Assembly (NCBI GenBank): GCA_000182565.2
Contig: KQ257450.1
DNA: 64,000 bases
Origin: Spizellomyces punctatus DAOM BR117
Lineage: Eukaryota
Strand: one strand, 5' to 3'
Numbering within the stretch: the stretch's first letter is position 1; each line of letters opens with the position of its first letter. The notes under the pieces are model-generated. The model was given only the letters and a program-made list of their open reading frames with translations. It was not told where the DNA came from and made no database searches. Positions 43,667 through 52,092 of this stretch are shown here, in pieces. A program made the position numbers and the translations under genes.

Positions 43667-46337
43667 ATGGACATTGCGGAAGCCCGGAGACTCGCAGACG
43701 CGGTGGCAGCAAAGTAAAAAATGAATGAACCTTTATCGTTCGTCCTGGTCACCACATTCGCTAAGTCATGTGAAACAGCTACCTCACCTGGCGGAGAGCA
43801 CGAGCAGCGAGAGGACAAGCGAATGCTGCTGCAGCAAGCACGGTACATCCGGCCAACTTTGTAGCCGGTCAACGTGACATGCTCGAACGGTAAGCGCATG
43901 ACTAGAGTGTCCGCTGTCCTGTTATCAACAGTTCATCACCATATCTAACAATATGACAGCCTGCAGTCTACAGCCAGACATGTCATGAAATATGATGATA
44001 TTGAACTCCAGGTTGATATACATATTAGCCAACCATGGCAACGTATATCCTTCAGTTGCTGACACTGGGCATTCACGTCTCAATAGGATATAGCTCGGAA
44101 TGAGATACCAATCGACCGATTACACGAGGAAGCACACAAATTGGTAGATGCAAATCCTGAAAGCGATTTCCATGATCATCTTGTGAAAGCACTCTTAAAA
44201 TGGTTCAAGAATGAGGTGGGTGCATCGGTCAGCTTAATCTGTGGCCAATTGGATATGCTATGGATTGACAAGCTCGATCCAGTATTTTGTTTGGGTGAAC
44301 GAACCACCGTGCGATTACTGCAAGGTAATGTTAATTGCTGAACGAGGTTCCTCTACATGCTCTAAATGTGTCTTATAGAGTCCTACAACGAGTGTCGGGG
44401 GAGCCGCGCCTACCGATGCAGAGCTCCGACATGGCGGAGGTCGGGTAGAACTTTATGTATGCACGTCTTGCCGCCGGCATACCCGCTTTCCACGCTACAA
44501 GTACGAATCTGGCAGTGTGCTCTTTATCGTGCTTCACACACTCTGACGTTTGTGAAGTGACCCAGTGAAGTTATGTGAGACCAGACGTGGCCGTTGTGGC
44601 GAGTGGGCGAATGTAAGGCATTTCGCACCGTATGTACAAGGCCCTGATAATGACTTGCATAACTAGGTGTTCTGTCTTTTTGCCAAAGCCATGGGATTTG
44701 AGACGCGGTACATTCTGGATTTTACGGATCATGTAAGTTCACGGTTTCAAGGTACCGTGTATTATGAACCTTATGCATTAATATCGGCCGCCAGGTCTGG
44801 ACAGAGATATATAATGAAAGGGAGAACCGCTGGAGTCGGTATTAGTATTGCTTAAGACTCAAGGGGGGATGACATTGCTCAAACTACTTTGCAGTAAACT
44901 GCGATTCATGTGAAGGAGAGCAATCCTATGATCAACCTTTGGTGTAAGTTACTCTTCTGTCGCGGCTATCTTGTGGTTTTTCATGATTAATGGTGTTGGC
45001 AGATATGAAGCGGGCTGGGGAAAGAAGCTGAACTACATCTTTGCCTTTGGCAGCCATGAAGTGGTGGATGTAATTCACAGATATACGCGCAACTTTGGGG
45101 AGGTGCAGACACGGCGAACTATGGTTAGCGAAGACTGGCTGGAGAAGGTAATCATGGGACGAGGAATTTCGGCGAGCCTTTTTGACCATCATATTTCGAA
45201 TTAGACGATTCGCGACATGACAGCCCGGAAAAGAGCCGATTTACCTCCAAGTGTTCGGGCAGAGCTGGAGGAACGTGATAAGACGGAACAAAGCCAGTTG
45301 AAAACCAATTTCCAACGATCAGCACATTCAGAGGAGCTGGTTCCGCGACAATCAGGTTCACTTGAATGGCGTGCGGCAAGAGGAGAATTAGGGAGTGGCG
45401 GAAATCAGAGCACTGTCAAACCACAGCAAGGTATCTTCAGATCTGTTGGAGACTTTATATATGATCATTTCTTAACAAATGACAATAGGGGAGAATGTTG
45501 TCTTCAAGCTGGGGGATACATCTGCTGATTTTGTATTGTCAGGTAAGGAAAAATCAACCTGTGTCGGCATGGTGCGACTCCTGATCGCCATTATGGCAAA
45601 CAGGAGCGGCGAAGAAAACAGGTCAATTGGTTGAGCTTACTCCAGCTCAGCCAGACAAGATTGGCAGTGTCTTTGCATCAAAGAAAATCGATCTCGGAGC
45701 GCCTTGCATCGTTGACTTTACCTTTCGCATTTCAAACAAGGATGGACGTTCGGCGGAGGGCTGTGGTGATGGGTTTGCTTTTGTCATTCAGTCGCATGCC
45801 TCGAGTGCTTGTGGCGCTTCCAATGTCGGCGGTTCTGGGTTGGGTTATGAAGGGATTCCTCATTCAGTTGCCGTTGAATTCGACACGTATGCCAATGGTA
45901 ATCGCGGCGACCCGAATGGGAATCACATCAGGTATGTTCGACATGCACAACGCTATATAGTGGATGCTTGCAATTCCTCATCGATTCAGTATAGTGTGCA
46001 AACACGAGGAAATTTACCGAACAGTGCACACCATGATTATTCCAAAGGTCTTGCTACCCGTCTACCGCCATTTAACAATGGGACCAACTACCATTGTCAG
46101 ATTATATGGATGCCATCTGAAAAGTCTTTACAGGTGCTTCTAACCGATAGGAGTGATGCAGCTGAGGATGTAGGAACAGATTTTGAGAGAATATTGACAG
46201 TAAAAGACATAGATTTGATTGAGATTTGCGGTAGTCCGTTGGCTTGGGTTGGTTTTACTGCTGCCACGGGTGGGCTCTGTCAACGGCATGAGATTTCTAG
46301 ATGGTGTGTTTGGCAAGGAGGCAAATCTGACCCCTGA
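43667..46337 (+). CDS. PNG1: Peptide:N-glycanase (PNG1/NGLY1) with C-terminal legume-type (L-type) lectin domain (spliced)
   Basis: LLKWFKNE|YFVWVNEPPCDYC, RVELYVCTSC...RFPRYN, TRRGRCGEWAN, DFTDH|VWTE, CDSCE, YEAGWGKKLNYIFAF, PRQSGSLEWRAARGE. Then GDGFAFVIQ, GGSGLGY, VAVEFDTYAN, WVGFTAATGG. Confidence 0.9.
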
Positions 46338-46515: not shown

Positions 46516-49500
46516 ATGGTAAGTGATCCATGGCTCCTTCGCTCTCTTTGTGAATCAAGCTGCTTTCCCTCGTCTCTGACACTCCCTGGTAATCTCACAA
46601 ATCACAACAGAGTCAGGTATCTGAAAAGACCCGGTAAGAGATCGAACGACATTGTTCATTGGAAAGTCTCCTCGCTGACAATGCTAGTATCTTAGACAAG
46701 TCATTGCAAAATACGACCGGGATGGAGATGGATACTGGACAGAGGATGACTTTAGAGAGGTTCGGAGTGAGCTTTCTACCACGAGGTCACTTGCGACACC
46801 GCGCTGACTTTTTTTGCTCCTCTCTCTTTTGAATGCGAATCACTAGTTTATGAGGGATATGGGGCATGGTGATATCGGCGCAAGTCGGATGCATGCCTCG
46901 TTCCAGTATCTCGATACGTCAAAGTTGGGAAAGATTGATGCTGTGATGTTTGAAAAGTATGTGTGTGTGTGCTTGCCTTTGGGAAGAGATTTCTTTGTTG
47001 CATTGGACAGGAAATGAAAAACTGCTACGAATACTGGACATTTGCTAATGATCCCATCAAATTAGGGGAATCAATCTCTTGTACGAACGAGACTTTTACT
47101 TTGGCAAACCTCGCAGTGATGACGATCTAAGTTCGGTTCGACTAACTGTTCGGTCTCGTCGGTATCCTGTTATCGTGAAACCTGAAGTATGGGTTCTTCT
47201 TCTGGTGTGTGCCCAACCTCGTTGGATGAGATCTGACTCTTATGGAAAAAGGTGTCGGATCCTATGCTCCTCTATACTTTGGTGGAGAAAGTGGGTGAAG
47301 GGTCATTTGGGGAGATTTACAAATCGTACGTTGGGATATCCAAAGCACCATTTTTTTTTAGGAAGCGAGGCTGATGATTCGTTTTTTATAGCGTCTCAAA
47401 GCAGGATCCGCAACGGTTCGTCGCCTTAAAGATAATCGATCTGGAACAAACACAGGATGACTTGGAGGATCTGCTGTAATATCTTTTGACACCACGATCT
47501 TTTAAGATAACCTGCTTTGCTCAACTATTGGATGTTGGGATATAGGTATGAAGTGGACTTTCAAGCCAAGTGCTTTTCGCCACATCTTGCGCGGTATTTC
47601 GGATCCTGGCTTTGGCATAGCAAGCTTTATATCGCAATGGTAGGTCCAGTTGTACTTGCCCTATTTCGCATTATCATAAAATTGACAAGATAGCTATTAG
47701 GAATACTTGGGCGGAGGAACCGCTGCAGAATTGGTAAGTGCCTTACAATACTTGCAATGGAACTGACAGATCATCTCATTGACGTTGTGTCAAACAGATC
47801 AAGTTTGCAAAGCTATCAGAGGAGCAATGTTCATACATTCTTCGTGAGGTTCTGAAAGGATTGGATTACATGCATTCAGAGAAACGGATACACCGAGATA
47901 TCAAAGGTCGTTTCAATGGCTCGCTTTGGCGATTTTCTGACAACGGCCACTTACAGCACTTATTTGATACAGCTGAAAATATACTATTTGACAATAGCGG
48001 CTCGTTAAAGCTCGCGGATTTTGGGGTTGCTGGGCAGATTGCGCCGAATAGTACGTCGAGGTCTACTTTCGTTGGAACTCCGGTGAGTTTTGTCAAATAG
48101 GCAATTTTTTTTATCATAGCATTATTTTTGATTTTGTATCGGTAGCTCTATATGGCGCCAGAGATTATCAGAGGCGAGGAATATGGAGTTAAGGTTGGTT
48201 CTGGCTGAAATCAGGTAATCGAACATGATACAAACCTCACAAATGTTTTCTCCAGGTCGACATATGGAGTGTAGGAATTCTGGCGATTGAACTAGCAACC
48301 GGCGCCCCACCTCGATCACATCTACATCCGATGGACGTAAGTTTGCGTATTGAAAGGTCCGTTTCCCATTCCATATGCAAACGTCGACTTTGTTGCAGGT
48401 GTTATATGCAACTGTTTCCGAGGATGCCCCCATACTGAAAGGATCACAGTTTTCTCCCGAGTTTCGTGACTTTGTTAGCAAATGCTTGACCAAACAGTCT
48501 GCAGAGGTAAGGTATCAATTGGTACCTTTTCTTATGGCCCGCGTGCTCAATAGCGAAATATGTGTAGCGCCCATCAGCCCGGGACCTTCTCTCCCACCCT
48601 TTCACACAGAAAGAACGAGATAAGGTCGTTTTGAGAGATAATCTTGAAAACTATTGGAGGAAACGGAAGGAACTTGCTGGAATTGCAGCCAAGACGGTCA
48701 CGTAAGACAGTATGCTGTGTCAAGTATGCGATGTTGGAGTGGTATGATAATAGCTTTTGTTGTTCTTTTTCCTTTGCGTCGGTTGGGTAGCCGTGGCGAT
48801 GATTGGTGGCAGCAGTATAACAAGGTAATTTATTGAAAGTATGCCAAAGTTCCCAGTCAAGTATACGGAACCAACTAATTCCGTTCACTTGACGCCTCAA
48901 GTTCCAGAGTCCAAAACCATCGTCACCAGTCGGTCCACAGGTCTCGGCAGCCGCTAGAGCGTCAATCCGCGCGGATCTCGCCCATATTGATCCAACCGCA
49001 ACGTACGGGAAGAGATCAGCGACGCGGGTATCGGACGGTGCAATGATGGGGAAGAACGTGCCGCTAGGACGAGCTATGGGCGTCAATATGCGAGGTGTCC
49101 CAGGGGTCTCTATGGCAGTCATTGAGGCTGCGCAACACCGATTACGCCCGGTAACTACGGACATGGGGAGACCAAGATCAGATACTGTAGATGCTGGACG
49201 GGGACGACCGATGACCCCGGGAGGTGGGGCCTCACGGTCCAATCTGAGGGAACCAGGTGGTGGTCCTCCGGGTGGAATAGCATTGCCGGTACCAATCCAG
49301 CCTCCAAAATTTCAGAAATCCTCAGCGTCTTCACTAGAACCCTCGGCACCTCCTCTGCCGCTTGAATACCAACCCCATCCGAGGCCGGTCCAGCCCGTAG
49401 GGTACGCACCCAACATGCCATTGCTTGTTGTCCCTCCTGGCCCTCCTGGCCCTCCAATGGTCTCACGGTCCCCAAGTCCATCACCACAAGACTCTGCGTT

Positions 49501-51349
49501 TGTTTATTACACGCCATCACCACCTTCCCCAGCACCATACATGAGCAGTGCCCCATCTCCTAGTGCCTCACCGAGAATATCGTATGCAGAGTCATCATAC
49601 CGGCCGGCTTCCACCTTTGTACCCATTGAACCCCCTGCACTGATTCAAAGGCCCTCGTCGGCAGGTCCCCGAATGCATCCATCGCCCCTTCAATCCACTG
49701 TAGCTCAAAATCGACGTATCTCTGCGCCCCCAGGTCCTGTCCAACCACAGGGAGGTCACCGGCTGGGACCTCAACCCGCTGTACGTGGACAACTACCCGA
49801 CGGTGGGGCGTCCGAAGGGGTCATGCCCGGCCGAGACCGCTCAGCATCTACTTCCTCGTTTAATGCTCCTATTCAACCACCTCGATTGAGCACCGAGCCT
49901 CCCAAATTGAAGCCAGGCGGTCGACCAATCTCTACCATATCCGATCTACGTGAAGTAGATTTGTCAGATACATTCAAAAAGATCGTTCCAACGTCTTTGC
50001 AACATGCGCTCTCGTTTGATTCACAAGAGCGCACTCTTGGATTCCTCGGAGTTCTCGATGAGTTGTATTGTACTGAATTGCGTTACATGGAGACTCTCCA
50101 ATCCATTATGGAGGTCTATGTGCGACCGTTGATTGCCCCACCAAAGGGCAAAAGTCAGGTCTTGAAGGAAGATCAGATAAAGACGATTTTTGCAAACTTG
50201 AGTCCACTGCATTTATTTAGTGTGCAGTGGCAGAATGAGGTGAAAGGGGCTATGGAGATGGCCAATGCGGGCAATGTGGTCGAGTATTTGATGAAAGCCC
50301 TGGATGCTTTGGTCAGTTCAATTTTGTGAATATCAGTAAAAAACGAGGGCACCTGGTTTAACCTTCTTCACCTGTGCTGTACAGACCCCAACGCTTCAAC
50401 AGCTGTACACGCAATACGCTGACAATTTCTGCGCTGCAATGTGGGAAATTCAAAAGTGCTTGCGTGAGAGCTCCAAATTCCGAGACTTTGCGACGCATGC
50501 ACAGCTCGATAAGCAATGCGGCGGACGGTCTCTGTACGAGTTGATGAAGGCACCTTTTGGACGGTTGACTCAATGCGTCATGCTATATGAAGGTTCACAT
50601 CCGATATGGCTAGCCGATATGGGTCTAATCGAGATTTTTACTGACTGTCAGCTTTGCAATAGAACTTGCGGAAGCAGGCCAAGTGCAAGAATTCTTGACG
50701 ACAGTTAGCTACATTTCAAAGTTGTCCGCTGACATGGCGGCAGCACAGGATAATTGGGAAAATCTGATCTCAATGTTGGTGCATATAGCCAACATCCCAC
50801 CTGCAGTATGTCTAGTGTCGCTTATTCGTTGTCAATATTTTTGTTAATTTTCATATGATGGCATTCCCCGTTCAAAGGTCATTCTCAAACGAGGTCAGCA
50901 TATCCTTATTGAGGAGACAGTTGACAAGGTCAAGATAAACTCCAACGGCTCCGTAACCTCCCGCAAACCCGTTCGACTATATCTCCTCAAAGATGTTTTC
51001 ATTGTGACAAAAGTTTTAAAGGACGCTCATGAACCTGTGGATTTGGCGTTCTTGTTAAATCCGAGCAAAAATGTGAAGCTTCCTAAACCCACATTGCAAT
51101 ATCGGACACTGCAGTTGAGGGATTTTGTCAAGGCGGATGTAATTGCTGGGAAAGATGGTTAGAAATGAGCGATGAGGACTTTGTCGTCGTTTGCTGTGCA
51201 TCTCATGCTATGCATTTCTAGGTGATCGCGGAACAAGCATGTTTAGTGTTACGGTGACGTTGAAGAAGGGCAAGACATATCACTTCTCCGCCTCGTCAGT
51301 AGCAGCAAGGGATCGATGGATTGAGTCTTTGAATCCTGAGCCAGTATGA
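46516..51349 (+). CDS. EF-hand pair + STE20-family Ser/Thr kinase + Pro-rich linker + RhoGEF (DH) + PH protein (many introns)
   Basis: EF1 YDRDGDGYWTEDDF, EF2 LDTSKLGKIDAVMF. Kinase VGEGSFGEIY, VALKIIDLE, IHRDIKAENIL, LADFGVAGQ, RSTFVGTPLYMAPE, DIWSVG. DH ELYCTELRYMETL...IFANL...LYELMKAPFGRL. PH ending TYHFSASSVAARDRWIESL. Confidence 0.8.
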
Positions 51350-51528
51350 GATGGATGATGACCGTTGGAAAAAGACTCGAATTGGCGTGATGGGGGAATG
51401 GCCTTTTTTTTACGTACCGATAATTGCCCAATACACACATAGTTTGCTGTACATTGTTTCCTTTCCCCAATACGTTCCTCCTCGTGAAATAAGCAATCAG
51501 CAGCAAACGTATTCCGCATCACAGCAAC

Positions 51529-52092
51529 ATGAGCCGGCCTGACGAGAGTCCACTTGATGCCATGCTGGATCCCCAAAAAAATCCTGACGCTCCACTTCCA
51601 CCTCTGGATATCGTCGCACCCGTTTTGGGCGTCCCAGCTCCTTCGAGGGACAGACCTCCGCCGCTATCGGGCTCTCTCATCTATTTCGAGATCCCATGTC
51701 AACATGTTTCTCGAGCCAAAGCTTTTTACAAGTTGCTCTTTGATTGGTCGTACCAAAAGACGCCAGAGTATTCTGAATGGGACTACCTCTTGATCAACCG
51801 AGACAAGAAACACCTCCATCCTGTTTTTGGAGCATTCAAGAAGGTGGATGCACCCATTGCAGGGGCCGAAGGCACTGGCAAAGACGTGGAAGGGCCAATG
51901 CTTCACTTTTACGTGGATAATATTGAAAAGGCATGCGAGGAGGCGGTCAAGGTGGATGGGAGCGTTGTGAGGCCAAAGTTCAAGTTTGGGTGGGAGCAGG
52001 ATATCATTGGATATTGTGCCTGGTTGAGGGATACTGAAGGGAATAAGTTTGCTATATATGAGGTCGAGCCGCACGGCCCCGTCGAGGAGTAA
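51529..52092 (+). CDS. VOC/glyoxalase-bleomycin resistance family protein (intronless)
   Basis: GSLIYFEIPCQHVSRAKAFYKLLFDW, PMLHFYVDNIEKA...GSVV, GYCAWLRDTEGNKFAIYE. Confidence 0.85.
   Translation: MSRPDESPLDAMLDPQKNPDAPLPPLDIVAPVLGVPAPSRDRPPPLSGSLIYFEIPCQHVSRAKAFYKLLFDWSYQKTPEYSEWDYLLINRDKKHLHPVFGAFKKVDAPIAGAEGTGKDVEGPMLHFYVDNIEKACEEAVKVDGSVVRPKFKFGWEQDIIGYCAWLRDTEGNKFAIYEVEPHGPVEE

Follow-up and report, generated by a model that had tools for sequence, protein, structure and literature searches.

Described counterparts of the gene considered here include the Kxc proteins of Dictyostelium, a name that stands for 'kinase and exchange factor for Rac'. The Dictyostelium kinome includes a kinase of the STE group that carries a RhoGEF domain in the same polypeptide (PMC1420674), and KxcB figures as a regulator of the cytoskeleton that relocates to the cortex upon stimulation (PMC3971484). 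Trio, Kalirin and obscurin likewise contain both a DH-PH module and a Ser/Thr kinase, the latter gained from SPEG/titin-type kinases, and the Dbl-type guanine nucleotide exchange factors (GEFs) of fungi have been sorted into eight types (Cdc24, Rom, DNMBP, Tus1, FGD, ITSN, LRR and DH/PH-only), none of which is described with a kinase in the part of that survey that sets out the types (Fort and Blangy, 2017; PMC5499878). A partnership between two separate proteins has been described in mammalian cells, where the kinase MST3 binds VAV2 and raises both VAV2 phosphorylation and Rac1-GTP (PMC4924737). The subject of the present analysis is a stretch of 64,000 nucleotides from contig KQ257450.1 of the chytrid fungus Spizellomyces punctatus (hereafter the window), in which positions 46516-51349 of the plus strand likely hold a single gene for a protein of ~1130 aa that joins an EF-hand pair, a predicted GCK-III kinase, a DDWWxQY motif, a linker and a DH-PH module, and for which a coupling of kinase and GEF in cis is proposed.

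Chytrids are fungi that still crawl and swim. A survey of chytrid actin makes no mention of GEFs, Rac, Cdc42 or calcium, and the links of Ca2+, kinases and Rho GTPases to the chytrid actin machinery are largely unmapped. Elsewhere the connection between GCK-III kinases and GEFs rests on scattered evidence, and a fusion of the two offers a single, genetically tractable target on which to test it. MST-family kinases reportedly phosphorylate the GEF domains of obscurin, and in fission yeast a kinase is linked to a GEF through Orb6 and Gef1. An initial annotation of the window, made from its letters alone, had brought up the kinase-RhoGEF fusions of Dictyostelium as a precedent for this locus, and such fusions do exist according to the two Dictyostelium papers cited above.

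Gene structure and domain order

Rebuilding the splicing by script gives one frame of 1132 aa (3399 nt) from 21 exons, spanning 46516-51349 on the plus strand without an internal stop, and all 20 introns are of the GT-AG type and 61-109 nt long. This model is collinear with P0001, the annotated 1137-aa protein of Spizellomyces sp. 'palustris', to which 1083 of its 1132 residues are identical (95.7%); the only gaps in the alignment are a 2-aa difference in the choice of a splice acceptor and a 7-aa indel in the linker. The former lies at the start of exon 17, where two in-frame acceptors stand in tandem (...caag|ttccag|agt, window 48896-48910, sites 48901/48907): the annotation of P0001 uses the second, which starts the exon at 48908 and leaves out residues FQ, whereas the hand-built model and the initial annotation both use the first. 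A single continuous frame opening on an ATG-only exon had been proposed from the start, and the rebuilt splicing agrees with it in every coordinate, exon 1 (46516..46518) consisting of the ATG alone followed by the donor gtaagt. Exon 2 (46611..46633) is 23 nt long and has no ATG of its own, its frame containing a TAA at 46590-46592. It encodes SQVSEKT(R), with which the helix entering the first EF-hand begins, and is conserved in P0001 and in the homologues P0004 and P0006; the N-terminus M-S-(Q)-V-S-E-K-T-R is common to the gene model, P0001 and P0006. Whole-protein scores given below were obtained with P0001 as a proxy, the window itself having been scored as single exons.

The N-terminal module is built from three further exons. 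Exon 3 (46696..46759) encodes the entering helix of EF-hand 1 (EF1) and its loop, DRDGDGYWTEDD, which is of the helix-loop-helix type with a 12-residue D-x-[DN]-x-[DN]-G loop, and exon 4 (46847..46956) supplies the exiting helix, a spacer and a degenerate EF-hand 2 (EF2) with the loop DTSKLGKIDAVM; the near-canonical first loop and the degenerate second one had both been recognised in the initial annotation, and both are read in the spliced translation. Exon 5 (47066..47186) adds a conserved connector of 40 aa between the EF pair and the kinase. The Pfam model EF-hand_6 (cut-off 25) scores 21.8 bits on exon 3 alone, the end of which falls inside the motif, and 27.0-33.1 bits in P0001 (27.0), P0002 and P0004, while the pair model EF-hand_7 (cut-off 30) gives 16.8-25.2 bits in the same three proteins. 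Four helices are placed at residues 6-74 in a predicted model of low confidence (pLDDT about 45-63), and the module as a whole (residues 1-108) is 63-72% identical across orders.

Exons 6-15 (47252..48701), ten exons separated by introns of 61-70 nt, encode the kinase domain and its helical tail. The spliced translation and the alignment to MST3 show intact VALK, HRD, DFG and GTP|LYMAPE motifs together with the activation-loop Thr, and the kinase is apparently active. Pfam Pkinase matches exons 10 and 11 of the window individually and reaches 222 bits in P0001. Among solved structures, the P0001 kinase scores 300.5 bits against STK24/MST3, 297 against STK25 and 292 against MST4, compared with at most 240 bits against MST1/2 and at most 207 against PAK; because the first three outscore the others, the domain is assigned to the GCK-III (MST3/STK24-like) type of STE20 kinase, which narrows the GCK/MST-like STE20 kinase with intact motifs named in the initial annotation.

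The C-terminal part of the protein occupies five exons. Exon 17 (48902..50311, 1410 nt) begins with a conserved post-junction block (SAAARASIRADLAHIDPTATYGK, 48944-49012) and continues through a Pro/Ser-rich linker into the first half of the DH domain, the middle of which lies in exon 18 (50385..50592) and the end in exon 19 (50663..50805), which is collinear with P0001 and falls within the DH-PH module profile (a hidden Markov model, HMM). The N-terminal strands of the PH domain are encoded by exon 20 (50878..51157), and its final strands, together with a C-terminal helix and the stop codon (51347-51349), by exon 21 (51222..51349). RhoGEF (Pfam cut-off 27.6) is detected at 31.7 bits in exon 17 (exon residues 384-451), at 33.3 bits in exon 18 and at 87.3 bits in P0001; the PH scores are below their cut-offs, at 20.4 bits for PH_19 in exon 20 (cut-off 23.2) and 19.8 bits for PH in exon 21 (cut-off 25.1). 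The region modelled past the DH domain has seven strands and a C-terminal helix in a low-confidence model, and the best 40 Foldseek matches to the C-terminal model, which includes exon 20, are all DH/PH tandems (E 2.6e-9 to 1.8e-6). Domain scores and fold matches together identify the C-terminal module as a Dbl-type DH-PH in which the PH follows the DH immediately, in keeping with the DH-PH placed downstream of the kinase from the outset.

The kinase-GEF junction and its conservation

The kinase and the linker are joined by exon 16 (48791..48824), a bridging microexon of 34 nt that encodes (T)RGDDWWQQYNK, lies exactly where the initial annotation had put it and restores the frame into exon 17. 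As had also been pointed out, an in-frame TAA stands near the end of the kinase; it occupies 48703-48705, overlaps the donor of exon 15 (AC|gtaaga) and is read as a stop if intron 15 is retained. The frame is kept open by 7 of the 53 GT/AG-bounded single-exon solutions in the gap, which is the level of chance, so frame restoration by itself is a weak argument, and the case for a single-gene fusion is instead made by the conservation of the peptide and junction and by the recurrence of the architecture. Across all six frames of the window the microexon peptide motif appears a single time, and D402, W404, W405, Q407 and Y408 are invariant across six aligned homologues (motif DDWWxQY), as are S423, A426, I430, R431, D433, A435, T442 and G444 in the block that follows the microexon. 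Identity to P0001 is 50-73% over the microexon equivalent and 39-58% over the next 36 residues, compared with 41-55% over the DH-PH and 21-28% over the linker, which is about 340-380 aa long, Pro/Ser-rich and poorly conserved, and whose low-complexity sequence after the motif has no Pfam match at E <=0.01. These patterns place the junction under coding constraint. The post-junction block (~240 nt past the TAA) is conserved but lies upstream of the first in-frame ATG of exon 17, at 49043, which argues that it is translated from the kinase frame and not from a stand-alone GEF gene. The TAA and the microexon are no more than 85 nt apart, and with spacers of ~160-180 nt to the neighbouring genes, a 3' end and a promoter in that interval are implausible. 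The proposal of one gene and not two is thus borne out by the collinear P0001, the fused homologues and the conserved junction. Microexons of 34 nt matter for correct gene models in these genomes, given that the gene appears to be split or wrongly spliced in some database entries.

The position of the microexon motif recalls that of a docking motif in GCK-III kinases. MST3 and Nak1 carry W-I-F (residues 325-327) and W-E-F (321-325), respectively, about 40 residues past the kinase domain, and the MO25 pocket for such a motif has been shown with the equivalent WEF of STRAD (PMC3725419). The aromatic motif of the chytrid protein lies about 36-42 residues after the kinase domain, and a distant fusion, P0024, reads DWWQF at the matching place. 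By positional analogy, and not as a match, the microexon motif may dock MO25.

The same combination of domains recurs in other chytrids. When the DH part of exon 17 served as the query in a word-based search of longer proteins, five matches were obtained among 140 candidates, all five carrying both Pkinase and RhoGEF, and the same is true of all six matches among 3268 candidates in a word-based search of proteins of similar length with the DH-PH of P0001. EF-hand_6 is present in four of these six fused matches, and the models of the other two are cut inside the kinase. The six homologues come from Spizellomyces sp. 'palustris', Thoreauomyces humboldtii, Geranomyces michiganensis, Rhizophlyctis rosea (two) and Quaeritorhiza haematococci, and hence span five genera in two orders (Spizellomycetales and Rhizophlyctidales) and an unplaced family of Chytridiomycetes; in public annotations they are named hypothetical proteins or automatically 'STK24/25'. 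A HMMER profile built from a five-sequence alignment was also run against 1.84 billion cluster representatives and gave 951,874 matches at E <=0.001, nearly all of them kinases, of which the best 150 were used. Of the 154 proteins collected, 11 are matched by the HMM of the DH-PH module, 7 by that of the EF N-module and 8 by that of the junction, the last with 1 further weak case. Among the best 150 matches, P0007 comprises a kinase and the start of a DH, is cut at both ends and spans the junction, and the divergent P0009 combines an EF-hand, a long insert, a kinase, TDWWEQY and a DH-PH. Proteins shorter than 625 aa that matched the junction numbered 0 among 222 candidates, which is weak evidence given the word-limited sensitivity of the search. 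A metagenome scan with the P0005/P0003 alignment yielded 80 loci, all of them generic STE20 C-lobes, and none of the 80 had a DDWW-type motif or a tblastn match to the linker or DH-PH. The fusion is old, being common to Spizellomycetales, Rhizophlyctidales and Quaeritorhiza and extending to at least one lineage that is more divergent.

The more divergent proteins have features of their own. In P0009 the EF module is separated from the kinase by the insert, a Ser/Asn/Pro-rich low-complexity stretch of ~230 aa; the kinase lacks some of the join between its N-lobe and C-lobe, and the DH of this protein is missed by Pfam at E <=1 and caught by the family HMM at 155 bits. P0024, likewise among the best 150 of the 951,874 matches, consists of a kinase, the DWWQF motif, a sub-threshold SAM-like stretch, a RhoGEF domain of 91 bits and a long tail rich in Ala, Ser and Lys. 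P0090, from the same 150, combines a kinase with an EF pair (35.1 bits for EF-hand_7) and a SAM-like stretch that is weak, and no RhoGEF is detected in it. P0024 and P0090 look like a second, more distant family.

The search for this architecture thus returned fused homologues across chytrid lineages and no characterised example. No paper on a fungal EF-kinase-DH-PH architecture emerged from full-text searches of the literature, although the supplementary tables of PMC5499878 and PMC1420674 might list it, and the initial annotation, which knew of no characterised fungal protein of this kind, is in line with that result. The architecture is uncharacterised but not unseen, as public annotations of chytrids already contain it. 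Taken singly, the domains are ordinary, and the shuffling of signalling domains is common; the degree of surprise is therefore moderate.

Transcript evidence comes from one 3'-biased RNA run of the same species (X5), of which ~6% was read and 286 reads of <=60 nt were placed. For the intron at 51157..51221 (GT..AG, 64 nt skipped), the last of the gene and the only one confirmed, there are 4 reads, which begin at 3 different positions; no junction read falls in the two intervals for which RNA evidence had been envisaged, 46518-47252 and 48700-48902. The sequence sets X1-X3 match the window as unspliced pieces of contig and carry no information on splicing. A single strong 3' peak of depth 16.8 to 42.5 extends over 51079-51432; depth falls from 42.5 in the bin 51256-51432 to 1.6 in the next, and this drop sets the approximate end of the 3' untranslated region (UTR; 51350..51432). 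Over 48424-48954, the region in which a kinase-only mRNA would have its 3' end, depth does not exceed 0.3. Minority bases are seen in the RNA reads over the 3' UTR (51404 T>G in 5 of 39, 51413 C>A in 4 of 31) and may reflect strain, allele or error.

Both neighbouring genes lie on the same strand. Upstream, 45585-46337 (+) encodes a legume-lectin-like (L-type lectin) protein (Lectin_L-type_dom, 87 bits), the 3' end of which is marked by untemplated A-runs in RNA reads after 46358, 158 nt before the ATG of the kinase-GEF gene. Downstream, a glyoxalase/VOC-like gene (51529-52092, +) begins 180 nt past the GEF stop codon as a single frame of 187 aa, its Glyoxalase_6 score of 24.4 bits being just above the cut-off.

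Competing explanations and proposed coupling

Several observations count against a single gene with coupled activities. The microexon junctions and the 5' exons, including exon 1, have no crossing read in the ~6% of the 3'-biased run, where depth over the body of the gene is 0-0.3, and the single 3' peak fits one 3' end for the locus but, just as well, a separate kinase gene that is silent. P0007 has other residues in place of the microexon peptide, and the motif itself is W-W-x-Q-Y and not a strict W-x-F. P0010 (298 aa) is a kinase alone that ends 10 residues past the shared KELAG, and P0011 (620 aa) and P0012 (474 aa) consist of the linker and DH(-PH) alone; on our reading of these protein models, all three would be fragments or would have missed the microexon. 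Comparative support rests wholly on gene predictions that probably come from similar pipelines and are not fully independent. The AlphaFold2 model of full-length P0001, from a 6-row alignment, has a mean pLDDT of 43, with the kinase below 50; solely secondary structure and the DH-PH fold match were taken from it, and it says nothing on EF-kinase packing. Taken at face value, the split protein models, a TAA placed exactly at the end of exon 15, the 7 of 53 chance microexons that would also bridge the frame and the lack of a crossing read in thin, 3'-biased coverage would suit a pair of neighbouring genes, one for an EF-hand kinase that stops at the TAA at 48703 and the other for a Pro-rich DH-PH GEF, the single frame being an artefact of splicing by hand and of gene prediction that joins neighbours. 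Such an arrangement is nonetheless very improbable: the bridging peptide, together with the 36 residues beyond it, is conserved to the same degree as the catalytic domains and precedes any exon-17 ATG, the 85 nt between TAA and microexon leave no room for a 3' end and a promoter, and six fused models from five genera share the architecture, with P0007 and P0009 also spanning the junction. In addition, the word-limited search among 222 candidates found no short protein that matches the junction, and the 3'-biased library peaks at the ends of this gene and of the upstream gene, with no peak near 48700-48900. A different possibility, compatible with a single gene, is that both forms are made. The stop is built into the donor of intron 15 (ACG|TAA as AC|gtaaga), and retention of this intron would therefore yield a kinase-only protein ending in ...KTVT, with inclusion of the microexon giving the fused kinase-GEF. 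The microexon-flanking introns, at 89 nt and 77 nt (83 with the second acceptor), are longer than the 61-73 nt of 15 of the 18 other introns, the tandem acceptor pair 48901/48907 lies at the same place, and the kinase-only P0010 ends nearby in a close relative. However, P0010 may merely be a prediction run into the intron, a stop overlapping a GTAAG donor is common by chance, and the RNA coverage is too thin to bear on the matter; the production of two isoforms is regarded as rather unlikely.

A further question concerns the role of the EF-hands within the single kinase-GEF protein, which the initial annotation had read as a possible Ca2+-gated kinase/GEF switch. In EF1, positions 1, 3 and 5 (all Asp) and position 6 (Gly) are kept in the window, P0001, P0002, P0004, P0006 and P0009, which suggests selection for metal binding, and position 8 is Trp. 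Position 12 is Asp in five of these six and Asn in P0002 from Rhizophlyctis rosea, so that the bidentate Glu at this position is absent, and EF2 offers no ligand at position 5, which is Leu or Ser, or at position 12, which is Met, the Met being kept in the window and four close full-length orthologues. According to a centrin review, sites with Asp or Asn at position 12 have low, unphysiological or no affinity for Ca2+, and the same review notes that predicted and measured Ca2+ binding often differ greatly (PMC8622359). Given position 12 of EF1, the missing ligands of EF2 and the centrin precedent, Ca2+ binding by the pair is possible but probably weak; the loop residues somewhat weaken the reading as a Ca2+-gated switch, and a low-affinity or structural regulatory element appears more likely than a classical high-affinity Ca2+ switch. 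It is about an even call whether the EF pair is instead a structural or docking module, or a constitutive Mg2+ binder, with regulation exerted through phosphorylation and partners such as MO25 and Rho GTPases and not through Ca2+. The substitutions in both loops, the low-affinity or inactive centrin sites and the EF-hand_7 scores under the cut-off in P0001, P0002 and P0004 would favour a role of this sort, whereas the metal-binding residues retained in five close orthologues and P0009, the EF-hand_6 scores above the cut-off in three orthologues and the gap between predicted and measured binding speak for Ca2+.

For the single fused protein, the preferred explanation is that a GCK-III kinase and a Rho-family GEF would be held in permanent proximity within one chain. 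By Rosetta-stone logic, the conservation of a covalent link between a GCK-III kinase and a Dbl GEF predicts that both activities act in one pathway. GEF activity would be set by the kinase through phosphorylation of the linker or of the DH-PH, either in cis or, in oligomers, in trans, with the Ser/Pro-rich linker as the obvious substrate or autoinhibitory element; alternatively, the PH/GEF end would take the kinase to sites of Rho/Rac/Cdc42 activation. The microexon motif could dock MO25 as a GCK-III W-x-F would, and the protein as a whole would represent a covalent version of the mammalian MST3-VAV2-Rac1 partnership. A more elaborate and frankly doubtful scheme is a Ca2+-to-Rho polarity module in which Ca2+, or Mg2+/Ca2+ exchange, at the EF-hand would free the kinase, and MO25-aided autophosphorylation of the linker would open the DH-PH to load Rac/Cdc42 at the membrane; such a module could drive zoospore crawling, encystment or rhizoid emergence, with inclusion or skipping of the microexon toggling between a free and a GEF-tethered kinase. 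If this were true, it would also follow from the fusion that Dbl GEFs are direct targets of GCK-III/MOR-pathway kinases throughout the opisthokonts.

Relation to known systems

Calcium-dependent protein kinases (CDPKs) consist of a CAMK-type kinase, an autoinhibitory junction and four C-terminal EF-hands. The chytrid protein also has EF-hands and a Ser/Thr kinase in one chain; here, however, the EF pair precedes a kinase of the STE20 type. With the GCK-III kinases (STK24/MST3, STK25, MST4 and Nak1) it shares the kinase domain, the catalytic motifs, the helical tail and, roughly, the position of the aromatic motif, but it adds the N-terminal EF pair, reads W-W-x-Q-Y in the motif and appears to have a long linker and a DH-PH in place of the usual C-terminal regulatory region.

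On the GEF side, the nearest solved Dbl proteins are ECT2 and intersectin-1 (ITSN1), with which the chytrid protein has in common a DH domain and a PH-like beta-sandwich directly after it; two conserved elements of the DH align with intersectin, namely the T-E in its first block and the P..R..Y block. The similarity of its DH to any solved GEF is nevertheless weak, at 36.7 bits for ECT2, 33.5 for ITSN1 and 18 for Vav. An assignment to a GEF subfamily or target GTPase by sequence was dropped, every match being at most 37 bits. The protein fits none of the eight fungal Dbl types as they are set out by Fort and Blangy (2017; PMC5499878).

Among proteins that unite the two activities, Trio, Kalirin and obscurin differ in that their kinase lies C-terminal to the GEF and is not of the STE20 type, and these giant proteins are built of many repeats and lack an EF pair at the N-terminus. 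Dictyostelium Kxc shares the combination of domains known from the published accounts, but its kinase is classed as STE-unique and not GCK-III, and no EF-hand is reported in the sections of those accounts that describe it. The mammalian MST3-VAV2 pair also brings together a GCK-III kinase and a DH-PH GEF, although the chytrid DH matches Vav only weakly; there, two proteins meet through a Pro-rich/SH3 contact, whereas in the chytrid protein the link is covalent.

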